From a virus, in IMG/VR virus record IMGVR_UViG_3300010231_000013, positions 1-46,053 of that record: a stretch of DNA of 46,053 bases. One strand, given 5' to 3'. A program made the translations under genes and the position numbers. How positions within the stretch are numbered: position 1 is the stretch's first letter; the number at the start of each line of letters is the position of its first letter. The notes beneath the pieces were generated by a model. It searched no databases. It was not told where the DNA came from and saw only the letters and a program-made list of their open reading frames with translations. Shown one piece after another: positions 1-46,053 of this stretch.

Positions 1-55
1 ATGCGGCGGACCGTGCGGCGGACCGTGCGGCGGACCGTGCGGCGGACTCTGCGGC
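1..55. repeat. Terminal direct overlap, identical to 45999..46053 (also present at 773..827)
   Basis: String comparison by eye: at + gcggcggaccgt x3 + gcggcggactct + gcggc occurs at both window ends. Confidence 0.95.
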
Positions 56-700
56 GTACTCTGCGGCGGACCATGCGGCGGACTCTGCGGCGTACTCTGC
101 GGCGGACTCTGCGGCGTACTCTGCGGCGGACCATGCGGCGGACTCTGCGGCGTACCGTGCGGCGGACCCTGCGGCGGACCGTGCGGCGGACCATGCGGCG
201 GACCATGCGGCGGACCCTGCGGCGGACCACAGTCCATCGCTAACGTCCTCGCCGTTCCCGGCCCTGACGTGCAGGTCGATGACGTGCTGAACGACTTCCT
301 GCGCCGACCCAGCCTTCACGTAGGAAACGCGGAGAATGGCGGCATGTACGCGGTGGAGCGCGGCCTGCCAGTCGTAATCATCGGGGAGGCCGGCAAGCGT
401 CTCGGCAAGCTGGACATGCCACTTGGCGCTCTCGCCGTTCGGCAGGCCCTCGAAAACGGTATCCTGTAACAGCGCCAGCCATTCTGGGTAGCCGTAGTGT
501 TCGGCTACGATCTCATGCTTGTTTCCAAGCGCTCCGATCTCTTCGGCATCCATGTCGGGCCGGATATGATGGATATGACAACCTACGCTACAGCCCTTGA
601 AGCCGTCATCGTCATCGCCATAGGTTCCCTTGAGCAGCATGTCCGCTGCGAAGTGGGCGCGGGACTGTTCAAGCAGTTCGGTTTTCTGTTCAGGCGTCAT
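1..700 (-). CDS. Repeat-tailed protein copy A, N-terminal part of a wrap-around gene. ATG at 700; continues 46053 -> 45901. 265 aa once the 55-bp overlap is removed.
   Basis: Nt 260-700 are identical to 948-1388 (copy B), so the same start context caggcgtcat applies. 645 + 153 nt = 798 nt = 266 codons, in frame across the junction. Confidence 0.75.
   Translation of the reverse strand, partial: MTPEQKTELLEQSRAHFAADMLLKGTYGDDDDGFKGCSVGCHIHHIRPDMDAEEIGALGNKHEIVAEHYGYPEWLALLQDTVFEGLPNGESAKWHVQLAETLAGLPDDYDWQAALHRVHAAILRVSYVKAGSAQEVVQHVIDLHVRAGNGEDVSDGLWSAAGSAAWSAAWSAARSAAGSAARYAAESAAWSAAEYAAESAAEYAAESAAWSAAEYAAESAARSAARSAARSAA
3..230 (-). repeat. 12-bp tandem repeat array A, 19 units in this part. 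With 45953..46000 the circularised array has 23 units.
   Basis: Units are gcggcggaccgt, gcggcggactct, gcggcgtactct, gcggcggaccat, gcggcgtaccgt, gcggcggaccct. Head-to-tail, no spacers, in frame with the minus-strand gene. Confidence 0.95.
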
Positions 701-722
701 GTTCTCGTCCTCGTTGTGTGGT

Positions 723-1388
723 TCAGGCGGCGCGCGTCAAAGCAGCGAGAACGCCGTCACGAATTTCCTGGAATGCGGCGGACCGTGCGGCGGACCGTGC
801 GGCGGACCGTGCGGCGGACTCTGCGGCGTACTCTGCGGCGGACCATGCGGCGGACTCTGCGGCGTACCGTGCGGCGGACTCTGCGGCGGACCGTGCGGCG
901 GACCGTGCGGCGGACCACAGTTCATCGCTAACGTTCTCGCCATTCCCGGCCCTGACGTGCAGGTCGATGACGTGCTGAACGACTTCCTGCGCCGACCCAG
1001 CCTTCACGTAGGAAACGCGGAGAATGGCGGCATGTACGCGGTGGAGCGCGGCCTGCCAGTCGTAATCATCGGGGAGGCCGGCAAGCGTCTCGGCAAGCTG
1101 GACATGCCACTTGGCGCTCTCGCCGTTCGGCAGGCCCTCGAAAACGGTATCCTGTAACAGCGCCAGCCATTCTGGGTAGCCGTAGTGTTCGGCTACGATC
1201 TCATGCTTGTTTCCAAGCGCTCCGATCTCTTCGGCATCCATGTCGGGCCGGATATGATGGATATGACAACCTACGCTACAGCCCTTGAAGCCGTCATCGT
1301 CATCGCCATAGGTTCCCTTGAGCAGCATGTCCGCTGCGAAGTGGGCGCGGGACTGTTCAAGCAGTTCGGTTTTCTGTTCAGGCGTCAT
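723..1388 (-). CDS. Repeat-tailed protein copy B (221 aa). An N-domain of about 165 aa is followed by 12 tetrapeptide repeats (WSAA RSAA ESAA RYAA EYAA...) and the tail FQEIRDGVLAALTRAA.
   Basis: Track ORF. GAGGA-type RBS in cgaggacgagaac upstream of the ATG. Tight spacing within the minus-strand operon. Confidence 0.8.
   Translation of the reverse strand: MTPEQKTELLEQSRAHFAADMLLKGTYGDDDDGFKGCSVGCHIHHIRPDMDAEEIGALGNKHEIVAEHYGYPEWLALLQDTVFEGLPNGESAKWHVQLAETLAGLPDDYDWQAALHRVHAAILRVSYVKAGSAQEVVQHVIDLHVRAGNGENVSDELWSAARSAARSAAESAARYAAESAAWSAAEYAAESAARSAARSAARSAAFQEIRDGVLAALTRAA
775..918 (-). repeat. 12-bp tandem repeat array B, 12 units
   Basis: Same unit family as array A. The first five units are identical to units 1-5 of array A. 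Confidence 0.95.
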
Positions 1389-2255: not shown

Positions 2256-2843
2256 TTATCTTGGTCGAATCGACGTGACCTTCGCGGCCCACTCGACCTC
2301 GACGTCAAAATCCGGCGGTGCGTTGTAAGAGATCAGGTGGAAGTGACCGGGCTTGCTGCCCGCCATCAGTTTCTTGATGACGATTCTGCCGTCTGCGCGG
2401 CCGATGACGCATACACGCCCTAGCAAATCCGAAGTGACCGGCTGTCGCCTGTCGTCGTAGAAAACGGTATCGCCGTCTTCTATGCGCCCGCCCATGCTGT
2501 CACCGCGAATTTCAAGAGCGACGGTATGTTCCGTGCTCATTTCCGGTGCTTCTACTTGCCCAAGGTTTCCTTGCCCTTCGGAGAAGTCTACAGCCCCTGA
2601 GCCGGCTAAAGCAATCCCAACAATTGGGACCATGCCGGATTCACCTTTTATCCCGTCCAAAAGGAACTCAGGGTTAATGGACAGTGCCCGCGCAATGGCC
2701 GTGAGGTTCTGCGGCTTCTTGGTCTTGCCAGCCTCGATAGCCTGGATCGTCTGAGGCTTGATCCCCACGCGACGTGCCAGGTCCCCTTGAGACCAGCCCC
2801 GCGTTTCGCGCGCCTCTCTCAGTCGTTTTGCCAAGTCTGCCAT
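2256..2843 (-). CDS. CI-like repressor: XRE-type HTH plus S24 (LexA-like) autopeptidase domain, 195 aa from ATG 2843
   Basis: HTH GWSQGDLARRVGIKPQTIQAIEAG. Candidate Ala-Gly cleavage site ALAGSG. Catalytic GDSM and IKKL motifs. Divergent from the cro-like gene. No SD before either ATG, so possibly leaderless like lambda cI. Confidence 0.9.
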   Translation of the reverse strand: MADLAKRLREARETRGWSQGDLARRVGIKPQTIQAIEAGKTKKPQNLTAIARALSINPEFLLDGIKGESGMVPIVGIALAGSGAVDFSEGQGNLGQVEAPEMSTEHTVALEIRGDSMGGRIEDGDTVFYDDRRQPVTSDLLGRVCVIGRADGRIVIKKLMAGSKPGHFHLISYNAPPDFDVEVEWAAKVTSIRPR

Positions 2844-2880
2844 GTGGCAGAGTTTAAATTTTATGGGCCTCATCCGCGCG

Positions 2881-30381: not shown

Positions 30382-32610
30382 ATGGTACAAGTGCCCAAGC
30401 AGCGCATGCGCTGGACGCCTCCGGCTGCCCGGATCGAAGGCGAGCGCCTGTTGAAGGCCCGCGCGGCTGCACAGCGTGTGCAGGATGCCGCTGTCCAGGC
30501 CAAGGCGGAAGCCGAAGTCGCGCTGGCCCAGGAAGAAAAGGCCTTGGGCGAAAAGGTTGGCGAACTCGAAAAGACGGTCGAGACGCTGATCAGAGACATT
30601 CCCAAGATGATGCCGGCATCGGGCGGCGGGCGCCGGACAATCGAAAAGGTTCTCAAGCGTATCTATGACCTCCCTGATGGCCTCGGATCGGCGGCAGGAC
30701 ATGATGAAGGCGACTTTGCTACCGCCGCACAAGGCACAAAGGCCGACACGGCTGTTCAACCCGAAGATATTGGAACCGCGGCGACCCATGATGCCGAAGA
30801 TTTCGCCACGGCGGCACAAGGCGAGCTTGCCGATAGCGCGTTTCAGTCCGCGAATGTCATCGATGAAGACGACATGGCGTCGGACAGCGCCACGAAAGTG
30901 CCGACGCAACAGAGTGTCAAAGCCTATGCCGACCTCAAGGCCGCGAAGTCCGCCAACGGCTCCGACTTCGCCAGCCTGCCCGATGTCCGCAAGAACATCA
31001 AACTGCCGACCTACTGCACGGATCGCACTGCGGCCAAGGCGCTCGATGTCACCAAGGACACGGCGCTGCACATCGTGGGCGATGGGGACCGCAACGGTAC
31101 TTTCGTCTTTCGCTCGGGCGATTACAGCTCGTACATCACGGCAGACACGCGCGAAGGCATCTATTTCGCACCGACCAGCGATGCGACTGGCGCGAGCGGT
31201 GCATGGGTCCGGCTTGGCGGTTGGGCCGTTGAAGGGGCTGACGTTCGGTGGTTCTACAACAGCGCGGACGCCACCGACTATCAGCCCGCAATTCAGGCGG
31301 CATTGAACCTGACGCGTTTCGCCAAACTCCCCGGCAATCCGACCGAACTGAAAATCTACTCCAGCATCACCATGCCGTCTTCGGCCAAGCTCACCGGCAC
31401 CGGCATCCTCGGCGGCAACGGCTCAAGCCTCCGTGCCGATTCCACGCTTAACGCGCCGATGGTCATCATGGCGAACTCTGCCGAAGTGTCGCGACTTCGA
31501 CTCCTTGGATCGCAGGATGGCGTAAACACAACGCGAACCGGCCAGACGCTGATTTCCCTGACCGACTGCACCCGCTGCGTCATCGACAGCGTGTGGTTCC
31601 AGTACGGCTATGTCGGGCTCTACCTCGCGTCGTCCAGCGGTGCCAGCGGCGGAAACGACATCACTAACTGCCTATTCTACACATGTGCCTCGTACCAGTT
31701 CCAGATTGCCGGCGCGACAAGTGCCGGTGTCGATTTCCGCATGGACAATTGCACGTTCACCGCACAGTCCGCGACAAGCAATTGGAAGATCGACGGCCTT
31801 GGTTCGGGCCTCGTTTCGAACGTCAAGATCACCGGAAACAGCATCACGTCGGCGCCTGCGCTCGACTTTAACACCTACGCTTCGCTCTACGGCGGCATCA
31901 AGTTCGAGAACACCATTGTCGAAAGCTCGTCCGGCGGCTCGGTGCGCTTGCGCGGCACAGTGACCGACAAATGGTTCGGTGTCGAATTTGTAAGCTGTGA
32001 TCTGAACTCTGCCGGCGGCGTCGGCCTGACGATCGACTATTCCGCAGACGTGCGTATGACGGGCGGCATTCTCGGCTCCACCTCAACCAACGGGTGCCTT
32101 CGCGTCGTCGGCAAGGCATGGAATACGACGCTGGTAGGCGTGAAGATGGCCACGGGCAGTGGCGTCGTGCCGATCACCAACACGTCAGGCGCTGAAATCA
32201 CCTATCTGACTGTTGTGGCACCGACGCATACCGGATCGACTGCGCTCATTGATTTCTCGACCGCAACGACCGTCTCGGAGATCTACGTGTCGGGCGGTGA
32301 ATGGGGCACATCGTCCACGCCGATCATTCTCCCCACCGGTGCCGCGCTTGGTGTTCTGACCGGCCCACTTCGCCGCAAGGCCCTTGTCGGCACGCTGGAC
32401 GGGTCGGGCGCCGCTACTGTGGCGCATGGCATCACAAACGGCCAGAAGCGCATCGTGTCGATCGGGGCATTCTATTCGTCGGCGGGCTCAATGAAGCCGG
32501 TGACCTGGCAGATCGACGGCTCCAACATCTATCTTTCGGCGGGAGCGGCAAGCACCAAATACCGCATCGTCTTCTCGTACACCGAGAACATTGACTCGAA
32601 CTGGTCGTAG
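30382..32610 (+). CDS. Tail fibre / tailspike with a right-handed beta-helix (pectate-lyase-like) C-terminal region
   Basis: Duplicated DFATAAQG-x-x-AD-x-A-x-Q fibre motif. SATKVPTQQSVKAYAD. NDITNCLFY and MDNCTF beta-helix-type repeats. Confidence 0.85.
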   Translation: MVQVPKQRMRWTPPAARIEGERLLKARAAAQRVQDAAVQAKAEAEVALAQEEKALGEKVGELEKTVETLIRDIPKMMPASGGGRRTIEKVLKRIYDLPDGLGSAAGHDEGDFATAAQGTKADTAVQPEDIGTAATHDAEDFATAAQGELADSAFQSANVIDEDDMASDSATKVPTQQSVKAYADLKAAKSANGSDFASLPDVRKNIKLPTYCTDRTAAKALDVTKDTALHIVGDGDRNGTFVFRSGDYSSYITADTREGIYFAPTSDATGASGAWVRLGGWAVEGADVRWFYNSADATDYQPAIQAALNLTRFAKLPGNPTELKIYSSITMPSSAKLTGTGILGGNGSSLRADSTLNAPMVIMANSAEVSRLRLLGSQDGVNTTRTGQTLISLTDCTRCVIDSVWFQYGYVGLYLASSSGASGGNDITNCLFYTCASYQFQIAGATSAGVDFRMDNCTFTAQSATSNWKIDGLGSGLVSNVKITGNSITSAPALDFNTYASLYGGIKFENTIVESSSGGSVRLRGTVTDKWFGVEFVSCDLNSAGGVGLTIDYSADVRMTGGILGSTSTNGCLRVVGKAWNTTLVGVKMATGSGVVPITNTSGAEITYLTVVAPTHTGSTALIDFSTATTVSEIYVSGGEWGTSSTPIILPTGAALGVLTGPLRRKALVGTLDGSGAATVAHGITNGQKRIVSIGAFYSSAGSMKPVTWQIDGSNIYLSAGAASTKYRIVFSYTENIDSNWS

Positions 32611-32614
32611 GCTA

Positions 32615-32642
32615 AAACGCGCCATCACGGGGAGGCGCGTTT
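32615..32642 (+). promoter_or_regulatory. Perfect 9-bp hairpin aaacgcgcc / ggcgcgttt spanning the RBS and TTG start of the next gene
   Basis: Read directly. No real U-tract, so it looks more like a sequestering or processing hairpin than a classic terminator. Confidence 0.4.
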
Positions 32643-34260
32643 GAGACTGACCGTTCTGGCCTCGGCCATCCTGTTTGCGGCGCTGGTCTTCCTTTCGATC
32701 GGCATCCGCGTCCCGATCATGTCGGATGAGGTCGGCTATCTGGCCATCGCCCGCTACATGGCAACCGGGCAAAAGCTGTTCGTCCAGTTCATGCCGTTCT
32801 ACAGCGCCGGGCAGTCGGTCTTGCTGGCGCCGCTGTTCAAGCTTGGGCTGCACAGTCAACAGGTCTATCAGGCCGGCATCTGGATAAGTATCCTGGCAAC
32901 GGCTCTCGTGCCGGTCGTGCTGGTCGCGGCGGCGAAGGAAATGCAGTTCCCCATGGACCGCAAGCTGGTCGCGGCTTCCGTGATCGCGGCGATCATGCCG
33001 GCCTATTTCTACCACGTCTTCCTGCTCTGGCCGGAGGCGACGCTGCGGCTGGCATTCATCGTCAGCTTCTACCTTCTCGCGGTAGCGTGGAACCGGAAGT
33101 CCAACGTTGTGTGGCTGGCCTTCGCGGCGGTGATCGTTGCGATGTACGCGCTGCACTCAAGGTCGATCCTGCTTATCCCGCTTGCCGCGCTGATGATCTG
33201 GATCGGCTGGCGGTATCAGAAGATGAGCATATGGGCGGCGGGCGCTTCCGTTGCGGTGATCGGCGCCGGGTTCGTGCTTGCCGGCAAGATGAACCACTAT
33301 TTCGAGGTGCAGCTTTGGGGCGCCAGCCGGGGAGATATCAGCCGAGCCGGTGAGATGGCCGCCGCACTGGCTACGCCGGAAGGCAATCACAGAATGGTTG
33401 CGGAAGCCATGGGCCAGGCGTGGGTTATCCTCGCCACGTCGTTCTGTCTGTTCGCGGTCGGGTTCTTTTCGCTATGGCGCTTCGGGATCGAGAGACTGGA
33501 ACGCATGGTGCCATTGATGTTCGCGGCGCTGGCATGTCTTGCCGTGTTCATCCCGTCTGTGGCTGTCATGATCCAGTTTAACCGGGTCGATCAGGTCATT
33601 TACGAGCGCTACACTGGCGTCGTGACAACGATCCCGGTGTGGCTCGGCGTCATCTACCTGGCGCGGGACGTGGACAAGCACCGGGCCGTCAAGTTCCTCG
33701 GCATCGCCGTTCTGGCCATGCTGGGGGCAGCGCTCTTGTGGGTGTTCCGGCAGGGCGCTCCGACCTTGATGATTACCCCGAACATATCTGGGCTGCTGTG
33801 GGTCAACTACTTCACGAATGCGATGAGCGCGTCCTTGAAGACTATGCTGCTGTACGGCACGATCGGCGGTGGCTTAGTGGCGCTTTTGCTGACGGCGCTC
33901 CCGCGTCGGGCCGTGCTGCCCGTTCTCGCCGTGGTGACGGTCGGAGCTGACGCAATGATCTACCATGCCGTGTACGGGGCGCATATTGGGCGCGGCTATT
34001 ACATCGGTGAGGCGTCGCGGGTTTACGGGAAGGCCAAGCCGCCGATCTTTTGGGACGCCTCGCTCGGCTATAACGGCAACACGCTCATGGACCAGTACGT
34101 TCTTGGGGCGATGCTGCCAAGCGACATCGGTAAGGTCGACTTGCAGCCGGGTCAGGCAACTGTGGTTCCCGGCACGTTCGAAAAGGCCGGGTATTGCTCG
34201 CTCGGCACATTCCCGGATGGGTCGAAGCTTCTTACGAAGGCCGATTCCTGCTTGCCGTAG
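32641..34260 (+). CDS. Polytopic GT-C fold glycosyltransferase (ArnT/PMT-like); probable cell-surface glycan modification (lysogenic conversion)
   Basis: More than 10 predicted TM segments. First-loop motif SDEVGYLAIARYMATG resembles the GT-C DE motif. TTG start with a GGGGAGG RBS. Confidence 0.7.
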   Translation: MRLTVLASAILFAALVFLSIGIRVPIMSDEVGYLAIARYMATGQKLFVQFMPFYSAGQSVLLAPLFKLGLHSQQVYQAGIWISILATALVPVVLVAAAKEMQFPMDRKLVAASVIAAIMPAYFYHVFLLWPEATLRLAFIVSFYLLAVAWNRKSNVVWLAFAAVIVAMYALHSRSILLIPLAALMIWIGWRYQKMSIWAAGASVAVIGAGFVLAGKMNHYFEVQLWGASRGDISRAGEMAAALATPEGNHRMVAEAMGQAWVILATSFCLFAVGFFSLWRFGIERLERMVPLMFAALACLAVFIPSVAVMIQFNRVDQVIYERYTGVVTTIPVWLGVIYLARDVDKHRAVKFLGIAVLAMLGAALLWVFRQGAPTLMITPNISGLLWVNYFTNAMSASLKTMLLYGTIGGGLVALLLTALPRRAVLPVLAVVTVGADAMIYHAVYGAHIGRGYYIGEASRVYGKAKPPIFWDASLGYNGNTLMDQYVLGAMLPSDIGKVDLQPGQATVVPGTFEKAGYCSLGTFPDGSKLLTKADSCLP

Positions 34261-36814: not shown

Positions 36815-37816
36815 TCAACTCCCTGTTTTCATTAGCACATTTGCCGTCTCAAAGCCAGTGCGGTGCGCTGGTGGGCCAGAAAGCCGGTTTGTGACCGTTC
36901 TGTCCTTCATCGCGTGGCCATAGGTATCCACTACGAGCTGCGCACTCTCCCATCCCCCAAGCCATGCCACCGTCACCGGATCGATTCCGGCTCTCAGAAG
37001 CCCCGTCGCGAAGCCATGCCTCAGCGCGTGCGGCGTCAAACGACGGATGCCGGCGCGTTTGATCGCTGCGAACCATGCTGACTTGATGCTGTGGCGGCTA
37101 GAGTAGCCGAAGACGCGGCCTGACCTGTCGGTCGGCAGATTGGCTAGCGCCACCACGAGATTCGGCGGAAGATGCACCACATGGTCGTCGCCGTTCTTGG
37201 TCTTCCACAGAACGGCCTCAGAGGCCCCCAAATCAACGGCGCTCCAGTCCAGATCGGTCATGTTGGAAATGCGCGAACCGGTCAGATAGCCGAAGATGGC
37301 CAAGGCCCCGAGATTGGTCGGCGCTGCTCTAGCGAAGGCACATACCCAAGGCCAGTCAGCTTCATCTCTCTTTCGCTTCGGAACCGGGAAGCGATCCACC
37401 TTAAGCAGCGGGAAGCAAAGGCCAAGCGATGCCGCATGGTTGATGATGGCCACGGTCGGCGTCACGAACTGTCGATTGCGCGTTGCCGGCCCGGCCTTCG
37501 GATAGACCTTGATCGCGGCAAGCCGGATGGCGCCCGGGGTCATGTCCTTGACCAGCGTGTTCTTCCAATGGTCCAAAACAATGGAGACGAAACGATCCGA
37601 CTTGTCCGCATCGAGGTAAAGAGCGGCGGCGGCTCCGAAAGTCAGGATCGACGCCGGGCCATCAAGGTCACGTTTGAACTCTCTGGCTTCGGCTCGGTTT
37701 GCAATTCTCTCTGCCGTCTTTTTGTCAGCCGTTCGAGTGCTTTCGTGTATCCGTCTTCCGGCAACCGTACCGCGATACCACCAGATGCCGTTGCGGTCAT
37801 AGAGCTTGAGCGGCAT
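36815..37816 (-). CDS. int: Tyrosine integrase
   Basis: The C-terminal HALRHGFATGLLRAGIDPVTVAWLGGWESAQLVVDTYGH contains the HxxR...Y catalytic signature. The N-terminus LYDRNGIWWYRGTVAGRRIHESTRT is typical of phage integrases. Confidence 0.95.
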   Translation of the reverse strand: MPLKLYDRNGIWWYRGTVAGRRIHESTRTADKKTAERIANRAEAREFKRDLDGPASILTFGAAAALYLDADKSDRFVSIVLDHWKNTLVKDMTPGAIRLAAIKVYPKAGPATRNRQFVTPTVAIINHAASLGLCFPLLKVDRFPVPKRKRDEADWPWVCAFARAAPTNLGALAIFGYLTGSRISNMTDLDWSAVDLGASEAVLWKTKNGDDHVVHLPPNLVVALANLPTDRSGRVFGYSSRHSIKSAWFAAIKRAGIRRLTPHALRHGFATGLLRAGIDPVTVAWLGGWESAQLVVDTYGHAMKDRTVTNRLSGPPAHRTGFETANVLMKTGS

Positions 37817-43067: not shown

Positions 43068-43554
43068 GCGGAACGTCCTTCACGATAAAACTGGCGTGTT
43101 GCTGAGAAATCCCGAATTCTGATGCGATCTCGCGAAGCAGCAGGCCATGTCGGCGCATTTCTGATGCGCGTGCGCGGTCAAGGCTTGTCAGTTTCGTTCC
43201 CGCGTTCCGATCACCAATGGCTGCCGTTCCGTGACGGCGCGCATCATCGTAATTCGCCGAACGAGTGTCCCATCGGAGATTGCTGAGTCGGTTGTTTGAT
43301 GGATTGCCGTCGCTATGGCACCCCTCCATGCCGGTGGGGCATGGACCTATGAACGCTTCGAGAACAAGCCGATGAACCCAAAGCCCTTTTCGCCGCCGAT
43401 CGTACAGATTGACTTTTTGGTAGCCGCGATGATCCGAGGAAAGCCGCAAAACGCCGCCTTGGCTCCCTTGCCTACGGCATGATCGAATTCTTCCATGATC
43501 GGATACTTCATATAGTCCCTCAAACTCTTTGATTGGACGCCATTCTTCGATCAC
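43060..43554 (-). CDS. Homing-type HNH endonuclease (NUMOD4 + HNH_3 + C-terminal HTH)
   Basis: WRPIKEFEGLYEVSDHGRIRS (NUMOD4). VHRLVLEAFIGPCP...CHSDGNPSNNRLSNLRWDT (HNH). Confidence 0.85.
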   Translation of the reverse strand: MIEEWRPIKEFEGLYEVSDHGRIRSCRRQGSQGGVLRLSSDHRGYQKVNLYDRRRKGLWVHRLVLEAFIGPCPTGMEGCHSDGNPSNNRLSNLRWDTRSANYDDARRHGTAAIGDRNAGTKLTSLDRARASEMRRHGLLLREIASEFGISQQHASFIVKDVPHG

Positions 43555-44339
43555 TTGCCCATCCTCCGCTTTTTGGCTGCGAAGGAATCTTCGATCCGCT
43601 GCATTTGGCTAGCCGGTATAGCGTCGATGCTTTCGGCTTCAAGCCAAGTCAGAAAGGCAGCCTCATCGGTTTCCGTCTCTTTGATGAGCGCGCGGATGTG
43701 GACAGCTTGTTCCTGGCTTATCTTTCCATCATCCACCGTTTGATCCGATTTCGACCCGTCATCATCATGAGAGACGGACAAGCCAAGCGCCAGCTTGAGC
43801 GTGTAGCGCTGTAGGTACGTCGTGGTGGATGCAATGGCCTGGAGGCTGTTTTTGCCGGCGCCGCTGTCCGGTGGGCCGGAAAGTGCGGTACGGGTCGAAT
43901 GACCGTCCACATGCTCAAGGATGCATGTGATGGTGATGGGCCGGTCAACGCCGTTGTCGCTCTCGAACCGGTAGGACAGCCCGTTCGCGGTCAGGATCGG
44001 CGTCACCTGTTCTTCGATCCCCGCCAAATCCTCATGGCGGTAATTGACGCGCGGCTTTCCTGACGGCGTGTAATCAACCTCTCGCGTCTTGATGATCGGG
44101 CGAAGCTCGGCCTTCGCCGCTGCTACCGCCTTGGTGAACGCCAGCTTCGCGTTGCGAGCCTCCTCGCGGTCGCGAAGGTCCATCATCTGCTTGAGAATTT
44201 CGGCGGAAACGCCCATTTCGAGCGCTCGGCCTACCATTTCCATCGGGGTCAGTGCCGGCGCATTGACCTTCTGGCGATGCTCGGCCAGATCAACTGGCTC
44301 ATCATGTTCGACGGTGAGCGCATTTGCGACGGTGTTCAT
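43551..44339 (-). CDS. erf: ERF-family single-strand annealing protein
   Basis: VNYRHEDLAGIEEQVTPILTANGLSYRF and GKNSLQAIASTTTYLQRYTLKLALGL are ERF-type motifs. Confidence 0.85.
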   Translation of the reverse strand: MNTVANALTVEHDEPVDLAEHRQKVNAPALTPMEMVGRALEMGVSAEILKQMMDLRDREEARNAKLAFTKAVAAAKAELRPIIKTREVDYTPSGKPRVNYRHEDLAGIEEQVTPILTANGLSYRFESDNGVDRPITITCILEHVDGHSTRTALSGPPDSGAGKNSLQAIASTTTYLQRYTLKLALGLSVSHDDDGSKSDQTVDDGKISQEQAVHIRALIKETETDEAAFLTWLEAESIDAIPASQMQRIEDSFAAKKRRMGK

Positions 44340-45900: not shown

Positions 45901-46053
45901 TCAGGCGGCGGGCGTCAGAGCAGCAAGGACGCCATCGCGGATTTCCTGAAATGCGGCGTACCATGCGGCGGACTCTGCGGCGGACTCTGCGGAGGACCAT
46001 GCGGCGGACCGTGCGGCGGACCGTGCGGCGGACCGTGCGGCGGACTCTGCGGC
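45901..46053 (-). CDS. Repeat-tailed protein copy A, C-terminal part (stop at 45901-45903). The same gene as 1..700 across the circular junction.
   Basis: The tail AFQEIRDGVLAALTPAA is homologous to the copy B tail. Repeat units 45953-46053 continue into nt 56 onward. Confidence 0.75.
   Translation of the reverse strand, partial: AAESAARSAARSAARSAAWSSAESAAESAAWYAAFQEIRDGVLAALTPAA

Follow-up and report, generated by a model that had tools for sequence, protein, structure and literature searches.

In bacterial surface-protein variable-number tandem repeats (VNTRs) and Moxon-type contingency loci, slippage or unequal recombination produces heritable, fast-changing phenotypes, and the classic contingency loci use frameshifts in repeats of 1-8 nucleotides (nt) to turn expression on or off. 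Here, we investigated a coding repeat array in a phage gene, located in the 46,053-nt stretch of IMG/VR virus record IMGVR_UViG_3300010231_000013 (positions 1 to 46,053), which we refer to as the window. The array has 12 units of 12 nt and lies in a gene of 221 amino acids (aa), gene B. Its closest described relative is gp54 of mycobacteriophage Tweety, which has a 12-base-pair (bp) unit encoding two invariant alanines and then G/W/Q and S/Y, a very GC-rich core, and invariant third codon positions (PMC2884959). The copy number is 48 in Tweety, 26 in Che8, and 15 in PMC (PMC2884959). Tweety mutants that escape the defences of Phrann gp29/gp30 or of the MichelleMyBell prophage have more or fewer repeats, and the repeat change is said to “tune” a counter-defence of obscure mechanism (PMC9262239, PMC8549241). 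Pham et al. cited variable region 2 of bbp36 in Bordetella phage BMP-1/BPP-1 as the nearest parallel to gp54 (PMC2884959). It is likewise an in-frame phage tandem repeat, with 9-20 copies between isolates and a role described as unknown, and is likened to our array by description; it differs in its 24-bp unit (19-bp repeat and 5-bp spacer) and in its peptide (PMC2884959).

A gp54-like array in gene B

The gene, its array, and the regions on either side of the array are as follows.

723-1388, minus strand: gene B, 221 aa, with an N-terminal globular domain, a 12-unit array, and a C-terminal tail; stop codon at 723-725.
918-1388, minus strand: N-terminal domain of gene B, residues 1-157, predicted to be all-helical with one small beta-hairpin (alignments, AlphaFold2).
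774-917, minus strand: array B, 12 units of 12 nt, NNG-T(C/A)C-GCC-GCA (Tandem Repeats Finder and translation).
726-773, minus strand: C-terminal tail of gene B, FQEIRDGVLAALTRAA (from the sequence).

Tandem Repeats Finder called a period of 12 at 774-916 with 11.9 copies and a score of 209. This bears out the 12 in-frame 12-bp units described in an earlier sequence-only reading of the window, which had placed them at 775-918, one base off from 774-917. In the coding sense, the units run W R R E RY E W EY E R R R, with AA after each, and the C-terminus of gene B reads GENVSDEL-WSAA RSAA RSAA ESAA RYAA ESAA WSAA EYAA ESAA RSAA RSAA RSAA-FQEIRDGVLAALTRAA. The nucleotides that vary within a unit are positions 1 and 2 (TGG, CGG, GGG, GAG) and position 5 (TCC/TAC); position 7 varies in one unit only, giving WSSA. 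The earlier claim that variation sits in the first two codons therefore stands, while the Ala-Ala that it took to be invariant is broken once, in that WSSA (unit 20 of array A, the second array of the window). Third codon positions are constant, with zero synonymous differences among the window’s 35 units. The GC content is 76-78% in the arrays (0.78 in array B) versus 60% in the genome, the longest perfect run of identical units is three, and the array is Trp-rich with a net neutral or positive charge. Because the unit is 12 nt, a change by whole units keeps the frame and frameshift switching is impossible, and we rejected an on/off contingency locus; the units also differ from those of contingency loci in not being identical.

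Both arrays are open in all six reading frames. As the sequence-only reading had recognized, the MRRTVRRT and CGGPCGGP open reading frames (ORFs) are artefacts that arise because of this openness. The minus-strand (W/R/E)-(S/Y)-A-A frame is real, as no other frame runs on into the conserved N-terminal domain and tail of the homologues, and the tail motif [YF]-x-E-I-R-D-x-x-L is kept across closer relatives. Both the gene B protein and array B are identical on an independent JGI contig, Ga0136217_1000235. Array B is solid at its own coordinates and is unaffected by the contig-junction problem of the second array.

Next, we compared the locus with gp54. The units WSAA, RSAA, ESAA, GSAA, and RYAA of Che8 gp57 and PMC gp51 are also units of the window, and the helix before the array reads ...IADLHR(R/Q)AAAGE/Q... 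in Tweety, Che8, and PMC versus ...VIDLHERAxxGE... in the window family, a shared DLH-x-R-A-x-x-G-E. The two also share a 12-bp unit with two alanines and a variable pair (with the one WSSA as the window’s exception), invariant third codon positions with variation at first and second positions, a high-GC core, unique N- and C-terminal regions on either side of the array, and a place in the early region of a temperate phage. In both, repeat number differs between close phages, although on the window side the counts come from short-read assemblies. They differ in the tail, which is 16 aa in gene B versus ~38 aa in gp54; in their hosts, which are Proteobacteria and many other phyla for the window family and Actinobacteria for gp54; and in the two to three tandem paralogs of unequal length in the window phage. 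Counter-defence is known for the Tweety mutants only (PMC9262239). Furthermore, the N-terminal half of the globular domain has no detectable similarity to gp54, and the link between the proteins runs solely through the last two helices, the array, and the beginning of the tail, partly via intermediate sequences.

Profile searches gave the following picture. The gp54 family corresponds to phrog_3416 (E = 1e-142), and gene B matches this profile at E = 1.1e-6, with residues 134-219 aligned to profile positions 120-208, although this match takes in the low-complexity array; the N-terminal domain of the window protein by itself has no PHROG match. A hidden Markov model (HMM) of the Tweety-clade N-domain ranked 13 divergent members of the window family (E = 2.7e-5 to 8e-3) above all 4079 decoys, whose best E-value was 0.15, and the alignment spans the two helices before the array. 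With hhalign, a narrow profile aligned 21 columns, covering the last helix only, while a broad profile aligned 113 collinear columns at P = 2.7e-4, although at a probability of only 42%. From these comparisons, we conclude that the array-bearing module is homologous to that of gp54 and that the proteins belong, as distant members, to a single superfamily; homology between the N-terminal half of the globular domain and gp54 is unproven. In three Gordonia phages, PhinkBoden, Smoothie, and WilliamBoone (L149-L151, ~1480-2004), we also observed array-less homologues of the gp54 N-domain (phrog_13065, 174-178 aa). They lie between a RecE-like exonuclease and a RecT-like annealing protein, which echoes the recombination-gene neighbourhood of the window family.

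The family itself is large. A word-indexed search returned at least 1284 homologues, and nearly all of the best 120 of these have the N-terminal domain, Ala-rich tetrapeptide repeats, and the conserved tail. The N-terminal domain alone is represented by 1087 clusters at 50% identity (E <= 1e-3). We counted 357 family loci in viral contigs, and 47 species genomes carry the family, from Proteobacteria, Acidobacteriota, Actinomycetota, Bacteroidota, Patescibacteria, and others. In other clades, AAYA/ADAA, ARAAWD, or AEAAW repeats take the place of xSAA, and tandem paralogs also occur at four other family loci. Nearly invariant residues in the family alignments are H16, D20, G36-C37, G40-C41, H62, E84, and H144, and the H, D, C, and E residues among them might form a metal-binding or active site. 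Scans with Pfam, NCBIfam, and PADLOC profiles gave no match for genes A and B or for 80 family members, and Tweety gp54 has no Pfam match either. Sequence searches of the PDB, with the single sequence and with a profile, gave nothing meaningful for the protein. A tblastn search of gene B against GenBank phages matched only the N-terminal half, in Xanthomonas phages at 43% identity; it returned no mycobacteriophage because the repeat was masked. A literature search with the repeat peptide strings SAAWSAA, SAARSAA, and SAAESAA yielded chance matches only. The sequence-only reading had called such a protein repeat unusual for a phage, which was overstated, as mycobacteriophages were reported to carry the tetrapeptide motif as early as 2007 (PMC2884959) and the family has many members.

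Array turnover, predicted fold, and proposed function

We examined codon use in 37 family arrays with at least six strict units. A single S-A-A 9-mer is used throughout in 31 of the 37, while between genomes the 9-mer changes among TCC-GCC-GCA, TCG-GCA-GCG, TCT-GCG-GCG, TCA-GCA-GCA, AGC-GCC-GCC, and AGT-GCC-GCC, such that both serine codon families (TCN and AGY) are used for x-S-A-A. Arginine is encoded by AGG in 22 arrays and by CGG in 12, and no array mixes the two. Glutamate (138), arginine (133), and tryptophan (118) occupy the first position at similar counts, and all three are present in 31 of 37 arrays. This pattern bears the signature of concerted evolution, in which units turn over rapidly by slippage or unequal exchange, combined with selection at the protein level that maintains x-S-A-A and the W/R/E mix. 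Since codons are uniform within arrays and different between genomes while the peptide is kept, a purely DNA-level role is ruled out.

In 66 close homologues whose tail is recognizable, the arrays span ~2 to ~27 units (median 12). In four metagenomic contigs (L137-L140), all short-read assemblies, the arrays have 15, 7, 6, and 3 units between flanks that are 98-99.5% identical. The comparison across related phages that the sequence-only reading had proposed thus shows that length is not fixed. In two of these contigs (L138, 1-700; L140, 2907-3576), we observed that the array runs straight into another C-terminus, LAPTVTELKSGALDLINRMIEVA, instead of the canonical YQKIRDGVLAAL tail. The exact 35-mer adjoining the array is absent from the viral and metagenome contig sets, which left no further copies of the phage for population comparison.

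The arrays also leave marks on the assemblies that contain them. Among 129 family ORFs, 26 run off contig ends, many within the array, and this includes contigs of at least 35 kb. One contig carries a family gene at both of its ends (L059 and L070). In two further loci (L113, 5935-6738; L128, 5971-6783), the array shifts to another open frame (...SAASRRGRRSRRRG...) or holds runs of N. These probably reflect errors of sequencing or assembly within the repeat, and they are invisible in translation because all six frames are open.

We then predicted the structure of the protein using AlphaFold2. The model of gene B (mean predicted local distance difference test [pLDDT] 91.2, predicted template modelling score 0.85) has a globular all-helical domain with pLDDT > 90 followed by two helices, 155-183 and 190-218. 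The model of the 23-unit protein assembled from the window ends (pLDDT 88.7) has the same domain followed by helices 155-205 and 211-261. In both models, the turn falls at the middle of the array, and the tail has a pLDDT of 90-97 (90-94 for gene B). The array is therefore predicted to form an antiparallel helical hairpin that becomes longer with more units and is anchored at both ends on the globular domain. Because only the array separates the tail from the last helix before it, we infer from the hairpin topology that the tail packs back beside the globular domain. The sequence-only reading had envisaged a variable stripe on an Ala-rich helix; the helix is borne out by the models, which refine it to an antiparallel hairpin. 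Inspected by eye, R-E complementarity between the two arms of the gene B hairpin (unit 1 versus 12, 2 versus 11, and so on) is not evident.

Two-helix hairpins that project from a globular domain for reach or recognition are found in seryl-tRNA synthetase, GreA, and DksA, where small residues allow the antiparallel, Ala-packed arms to pack tightly as an “Alacoil”. Those arms have a fixed length and a non-repetitive sequence. The predicted hairpin of gene B is alike in form and differs in its repeats and variable length. A Foldseek search of the gene B model returned only PDB matches with E > 2 despite the confidently predicted fold, and a search of BFVD returned one uncharacterised family member only.

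Taken together, we favor with moderate confidence the interpretation that the 12-nt units make up a coding minisatellite, located in an early temperate-phage gene of the gp54 superfamily, and encode a tunable arm that acts in counter-defence. The protein would consist of a globular domain of ~155 aa, a run of (W/R/E)-(S/Y)-A-A units forming an Ala-packed hairpin that projects from it, and a short conserved tail. With each unit gained or lost, the modelled arm would become ~3 Å longer or shorter and would present other W/R/E side chains at its tip and faces. Slippage or unequal recombination among the near-identical 12-mers would add, remove, and homogenise units, and recombination between tandem paralogs would contribute as well; arm length would then change rapidly without any loss of frame. 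By the analogy of gp54, the most likely role of the arm is tunable recognition, through which it would neutralise abortive-infection or toxin-antitoxin defences of the host or its prophages, and two or three paralogs of unequal length may provide a panel of specificities. Both the counter-defence role and the tuning mechanism are inferred by this analogy. The fast-evolving recognition surface suggested in the sequence-only reading appears largely right, as it matches the Tweety gp54 escape mutants (PMC9262239, PMC8549241). Because the recognition-element reading matches the gp54 system, the window protein would be a distant member of that known, poorly understood system and not a new kind of system.

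Tweety gp54 is one of few cases of phage escape from defence through repeat number. To this, our analysis adds the breadth of the superfamily, the early-operon position, concerted evolution, a predicted extensible hairpin, and unequal tandem paralogs. If the gp54 link holds, the module is widespread in many phyla at a conserved early-operon position, and a hairpin anchored at both ends would be tuned by arm length and tip register, not by the spacing of two domains. It would also offer many tractable systems with proteobacterial hosts for testing. We put forward a wider proposal only tentatively, and consider it doubtful as a whole: gp54 may be one twig of a very large, multi-phylum phage superfamily in which the hairpin encoded by a self-homogenising 12-nt minisatellite is constantly re-sized, through slippage and recombination among paralogs, against abortive-infection or toxin-antitoxin defences, with paralogs as an arm-length panel, amounting to a general repeat-length “vernier” of counter-defence.

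Several observations, in addition to the limits of the profile matches given above, weigh against the tunable-arm interpretation. The family N-domain HMM scores 5 bits against the gp54 N-domain, which is not significant. Wild-type Tweety gp54 is inactive against the Phrann defence, and both its native role and its mechanism are described as unknown (PMC9262239). About two thirds of the N-domain cluster representatives lack a clean tetrapeptide array and have a degenerate or non-repetitive segment in its place; the arrays may therefore have grown from an ordinary helical hairpin, and these relatives suggest such an expansion. Several pairs of samples have identical arrays, which counts against extreme instability, and the arrays are therefore labile over evolutionary time and not constantly in flux. 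Arrays can also collapse in short-read data and repeats damage short-read assemblies; therefore, part of the apparent length variation may be artefact. As for the fold, the confidence at the turn is low (pLDDT 51-71) in the AlphaFold2 monomer predictions, and a long intermolecular coiled coil is a possible alternative to the hairpin. The 23-unit model rests on a probably chimeric sequence and illustrates scaling in principle only.

We weighed three other explanations. The array could be neutral, a low-complexity stretch that has expanded as a tolerated linker or spacer and whose length drifts, with no role in recognition. The degenerate segments of two thirds of the N-domain relatives would suit this, as would the spread from ~2 to ~27 units with no obvious optimum and a family without known function. 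We nevertheless find it unlikely, as x-S-A-A persists despite changes of codon, W, R, and E are near-equal in nearly every array, the segment is predicted to be ordered, and length changes in gp54 produce a strong phenotype (PMC8549241). The position of the gene invites another explanation, in which the protein would be an accessory of the recombination module, for example a host-nuclease inhibitor or adaptor like lambda Gam, with the hairpin as a probe into its target. In the window and three prophages, a gene for ERF, RecT, YqaJ, or NinB closely follows the family gene, and the array-less Gordonia homologues sit between RecE and RecT. Such adjacency is expected of any gene in an early-left operon, though, and family genes in other contexts do not have these neighbours. 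A hairpin of 2 to 27 units suits a fixed channel poorly, and the neutral or positive, Trp-rich array is unlike a DNA mimic, a candidate that we rejected on those grounds. We consider an accessory role of this kind quite unlikely.

The array might instead act at the DNA level, as an iteron array or recombination hotspot, or be the target of a diversity-generating retroelement, with its coding capacity incidental. A GC-rich tract (0.78) that stands out from the genome and six open frames are what such a role might produce, but the DNA unit changes between lineages while the peptide is conserved. A diversity-generating retroelement was rejected, as there is no reverse transcriptase among the Pfam matches of the called genes (22 kb), the large ORFs code for structural proteins, and the variable sites (T/C/G, G/A, and C/A) are not adenine-specific. 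Any of these DNA-level explanations is very improbable. A tunable arm of the gp54 superfamily thus continues to be our preferred interpretation of array B.

The second array and the contig junction

The window contains parts of further paralogs at its two ends, with the following features.

701-722, minus strand: spacer between gene B and the next paralog, containing the conserved ...AACGAGGAC... upstream element; the same spacer lies 3' of paralog A' in the JGI contig.
230-700, minus strand: N-terminal domain of the second paralog (A in the window, A' in the JGI contig); 3 of 470 nt differ from the gene B copy, all adjoining the array.
1-229, minus strand: units 1-19 of the second paralog’s array, as far as the contig reaches (W G W W R G RY E W EY E EY E W EY E R R R).
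45999-46053, no strand assigned: 55-nt terminal duplicate of window 1-55, coding AA-ESAA-RSAA-RSAA-RSAA-T.
45901-45998, minus strand: array end WSSA ESAA ESAA WYAA, tail FQEIRDGVLAALTPAA, and stop; part of a third paralog, A'', in the JGI contig.

Further period-12 calls by Tandem Repeats Finder lie at 2-228 (18.9 copies, score 314) and 45951-46053. A 265-aa “gene A” with 23 units arises when the window ends are joined via their exact 55-nt overlap, and the sequence-only reading had equated the 44-aa difference from gene B with 11 units. The arithmetic is correct (265 - 221 = 44), but the comparison of 23 with 12 units rests on a probable junction chimera. That reading had also found the first five units of A and B to be identical; its count began at the window start, a position inside the array and not at either end of it, and the two arrays share seven consecutive units.

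The JGI contig Ga0136217_1000235 (47,032 nt) is the same phage, with 0 mismatches to the window outside the arrays, over 11.3 kb to one side and 10.4 kb to the other (~21.7 kb in all). It has three tandem paralogs, B, A', and A''. Its paralog B has 12 units, the same as the window copy. A' has 24 units (W G W W R G RY E W EY E EY E W EY E EY E W EY E R R R), one 60-nt block (EY-E-W-EY-E) more than the window array, and ends in a B-type tail (...TRAA). A'' is 257 aa with 21 units ending in Wssa E E WY and has an A-type tail (...TPAA). The window’s 55-mer is present in three copies in the JGI circle, one per paralog, and this circle is 808 nt longer than the window circle.

Both window ends stop at this repeat node. 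“Gene A” corresponds to the head of A', minus one 60-nt block, followed by the last four units and the tail of A'', and is most likely a chimera of closure or assembly. The 55-nt overlap is the repeat node and not evidence of circular closure, and the window probably lacks ~808 nt, including most of a third paralog. We therefore judge it probable that the pair of paralogs with 23 and 12 units is an artefact of assembly and closure, that the real genome has at least three paralogs, and that gene A is a chimera made through the repeated 55-mer. The terminal overlap is exactly 55 nt and located within the array, every k-mer of at least 99 nt in the N-terminal domains is duplicated, and contig ends often fall in genes of this family, all of which agree with such a closure. 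On the other side, the JGI contig likewise closes inside an array, through a 226-nt overlap, and its number of 60-nt blocks (three versus two) is ambiguous, as are the unit counts of both contigs here; both versions could be genuine recombinants that coexist in the population. Array B is not affected. The possibility of assembly artefact that the sequence-only reading had raised thus touches array A, which is probably chimeric, while array B is identical in two independent contigs. More generally, arrays of this kind break or mis-close short-read phage assemblies, and “circular” contigs that close in them can lose whole gene copies.

The paralogs differ in how far their parts have diverged. 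By k-mer analysis, the window contains exact duplicates of ~430 nt of each N-terminal-domain copy, whereas the tails at 726-773 and 45904-45951 differ by seven synonymous changes and one non-synonymous change in 16 codons, which suggests that both tails are under purifying selection. In the DNA of the N-terminal domains, just 3 of 470 nt differ. A mosaic of this kind points to old paralogs in which gene conversion, or recombination with a breakpoint in the array, has homogenised the 5' parts, such that crossovers would fall within the array.

The phage genome around the family gene

The gene content of the window is that of a complete temperate phage. It codes for a large terminase, portal/adaptor, tail and internal virion proteins, an integrase, a CI-like repressor, and ERF, and the sequence-only reading was right to call the locus phage-borne. 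Three of these genes mark the operon that contains the paralogs.

2256-2873, minus strand: CI/LexA-like repressor (HTH_3 and Peptidase_S24), upstream of gene B in the same orientation; marks the early-left operon.
43551-44339, minus strand: ERF single-strand annealing protein, downstream in the same operon; Pfam match on the identical JGI contig.
36815-37816: integrase.

The leftward early operon runs from the repressor through three small ORFs, the paralogs, small ORFs, ERF, HNH, and a YqaJ exonuclease, with the integrase further on. On the opposite side are a divergent Cro/YdaS-like gene and a replication module. The order of repressor, family gene, recombination module (ERF/RecT/YqaJ), and excisionase/integrase is also found in prophages of Aureimonas flava, Lysobacter enzymogenes, and one more genome, and more distant family members lie amid small early genes.

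In the rightward early operon (L001, 7928-8209; in the window, the equivalent region right of the Cro-like gene), we observed a GapR-like DNA-binding protein, a DnaA_C-domain protein, DUF1376, and a D12 methyltransferase. Because of this set of genes, the sequence points to an alphaproteobacterial host. The closest named homologues are from Rhizobiaceae, Tianweitania, and Aureimonas. Lastly, two ORFs on the plus strand lie 3' of the virion genes, at 30382-32610 (742 aa) and 32641-34260 (539 aa). They have no Pfam match and no informative PHROG, and their products may be tail fibre or receptor-binding proteins.

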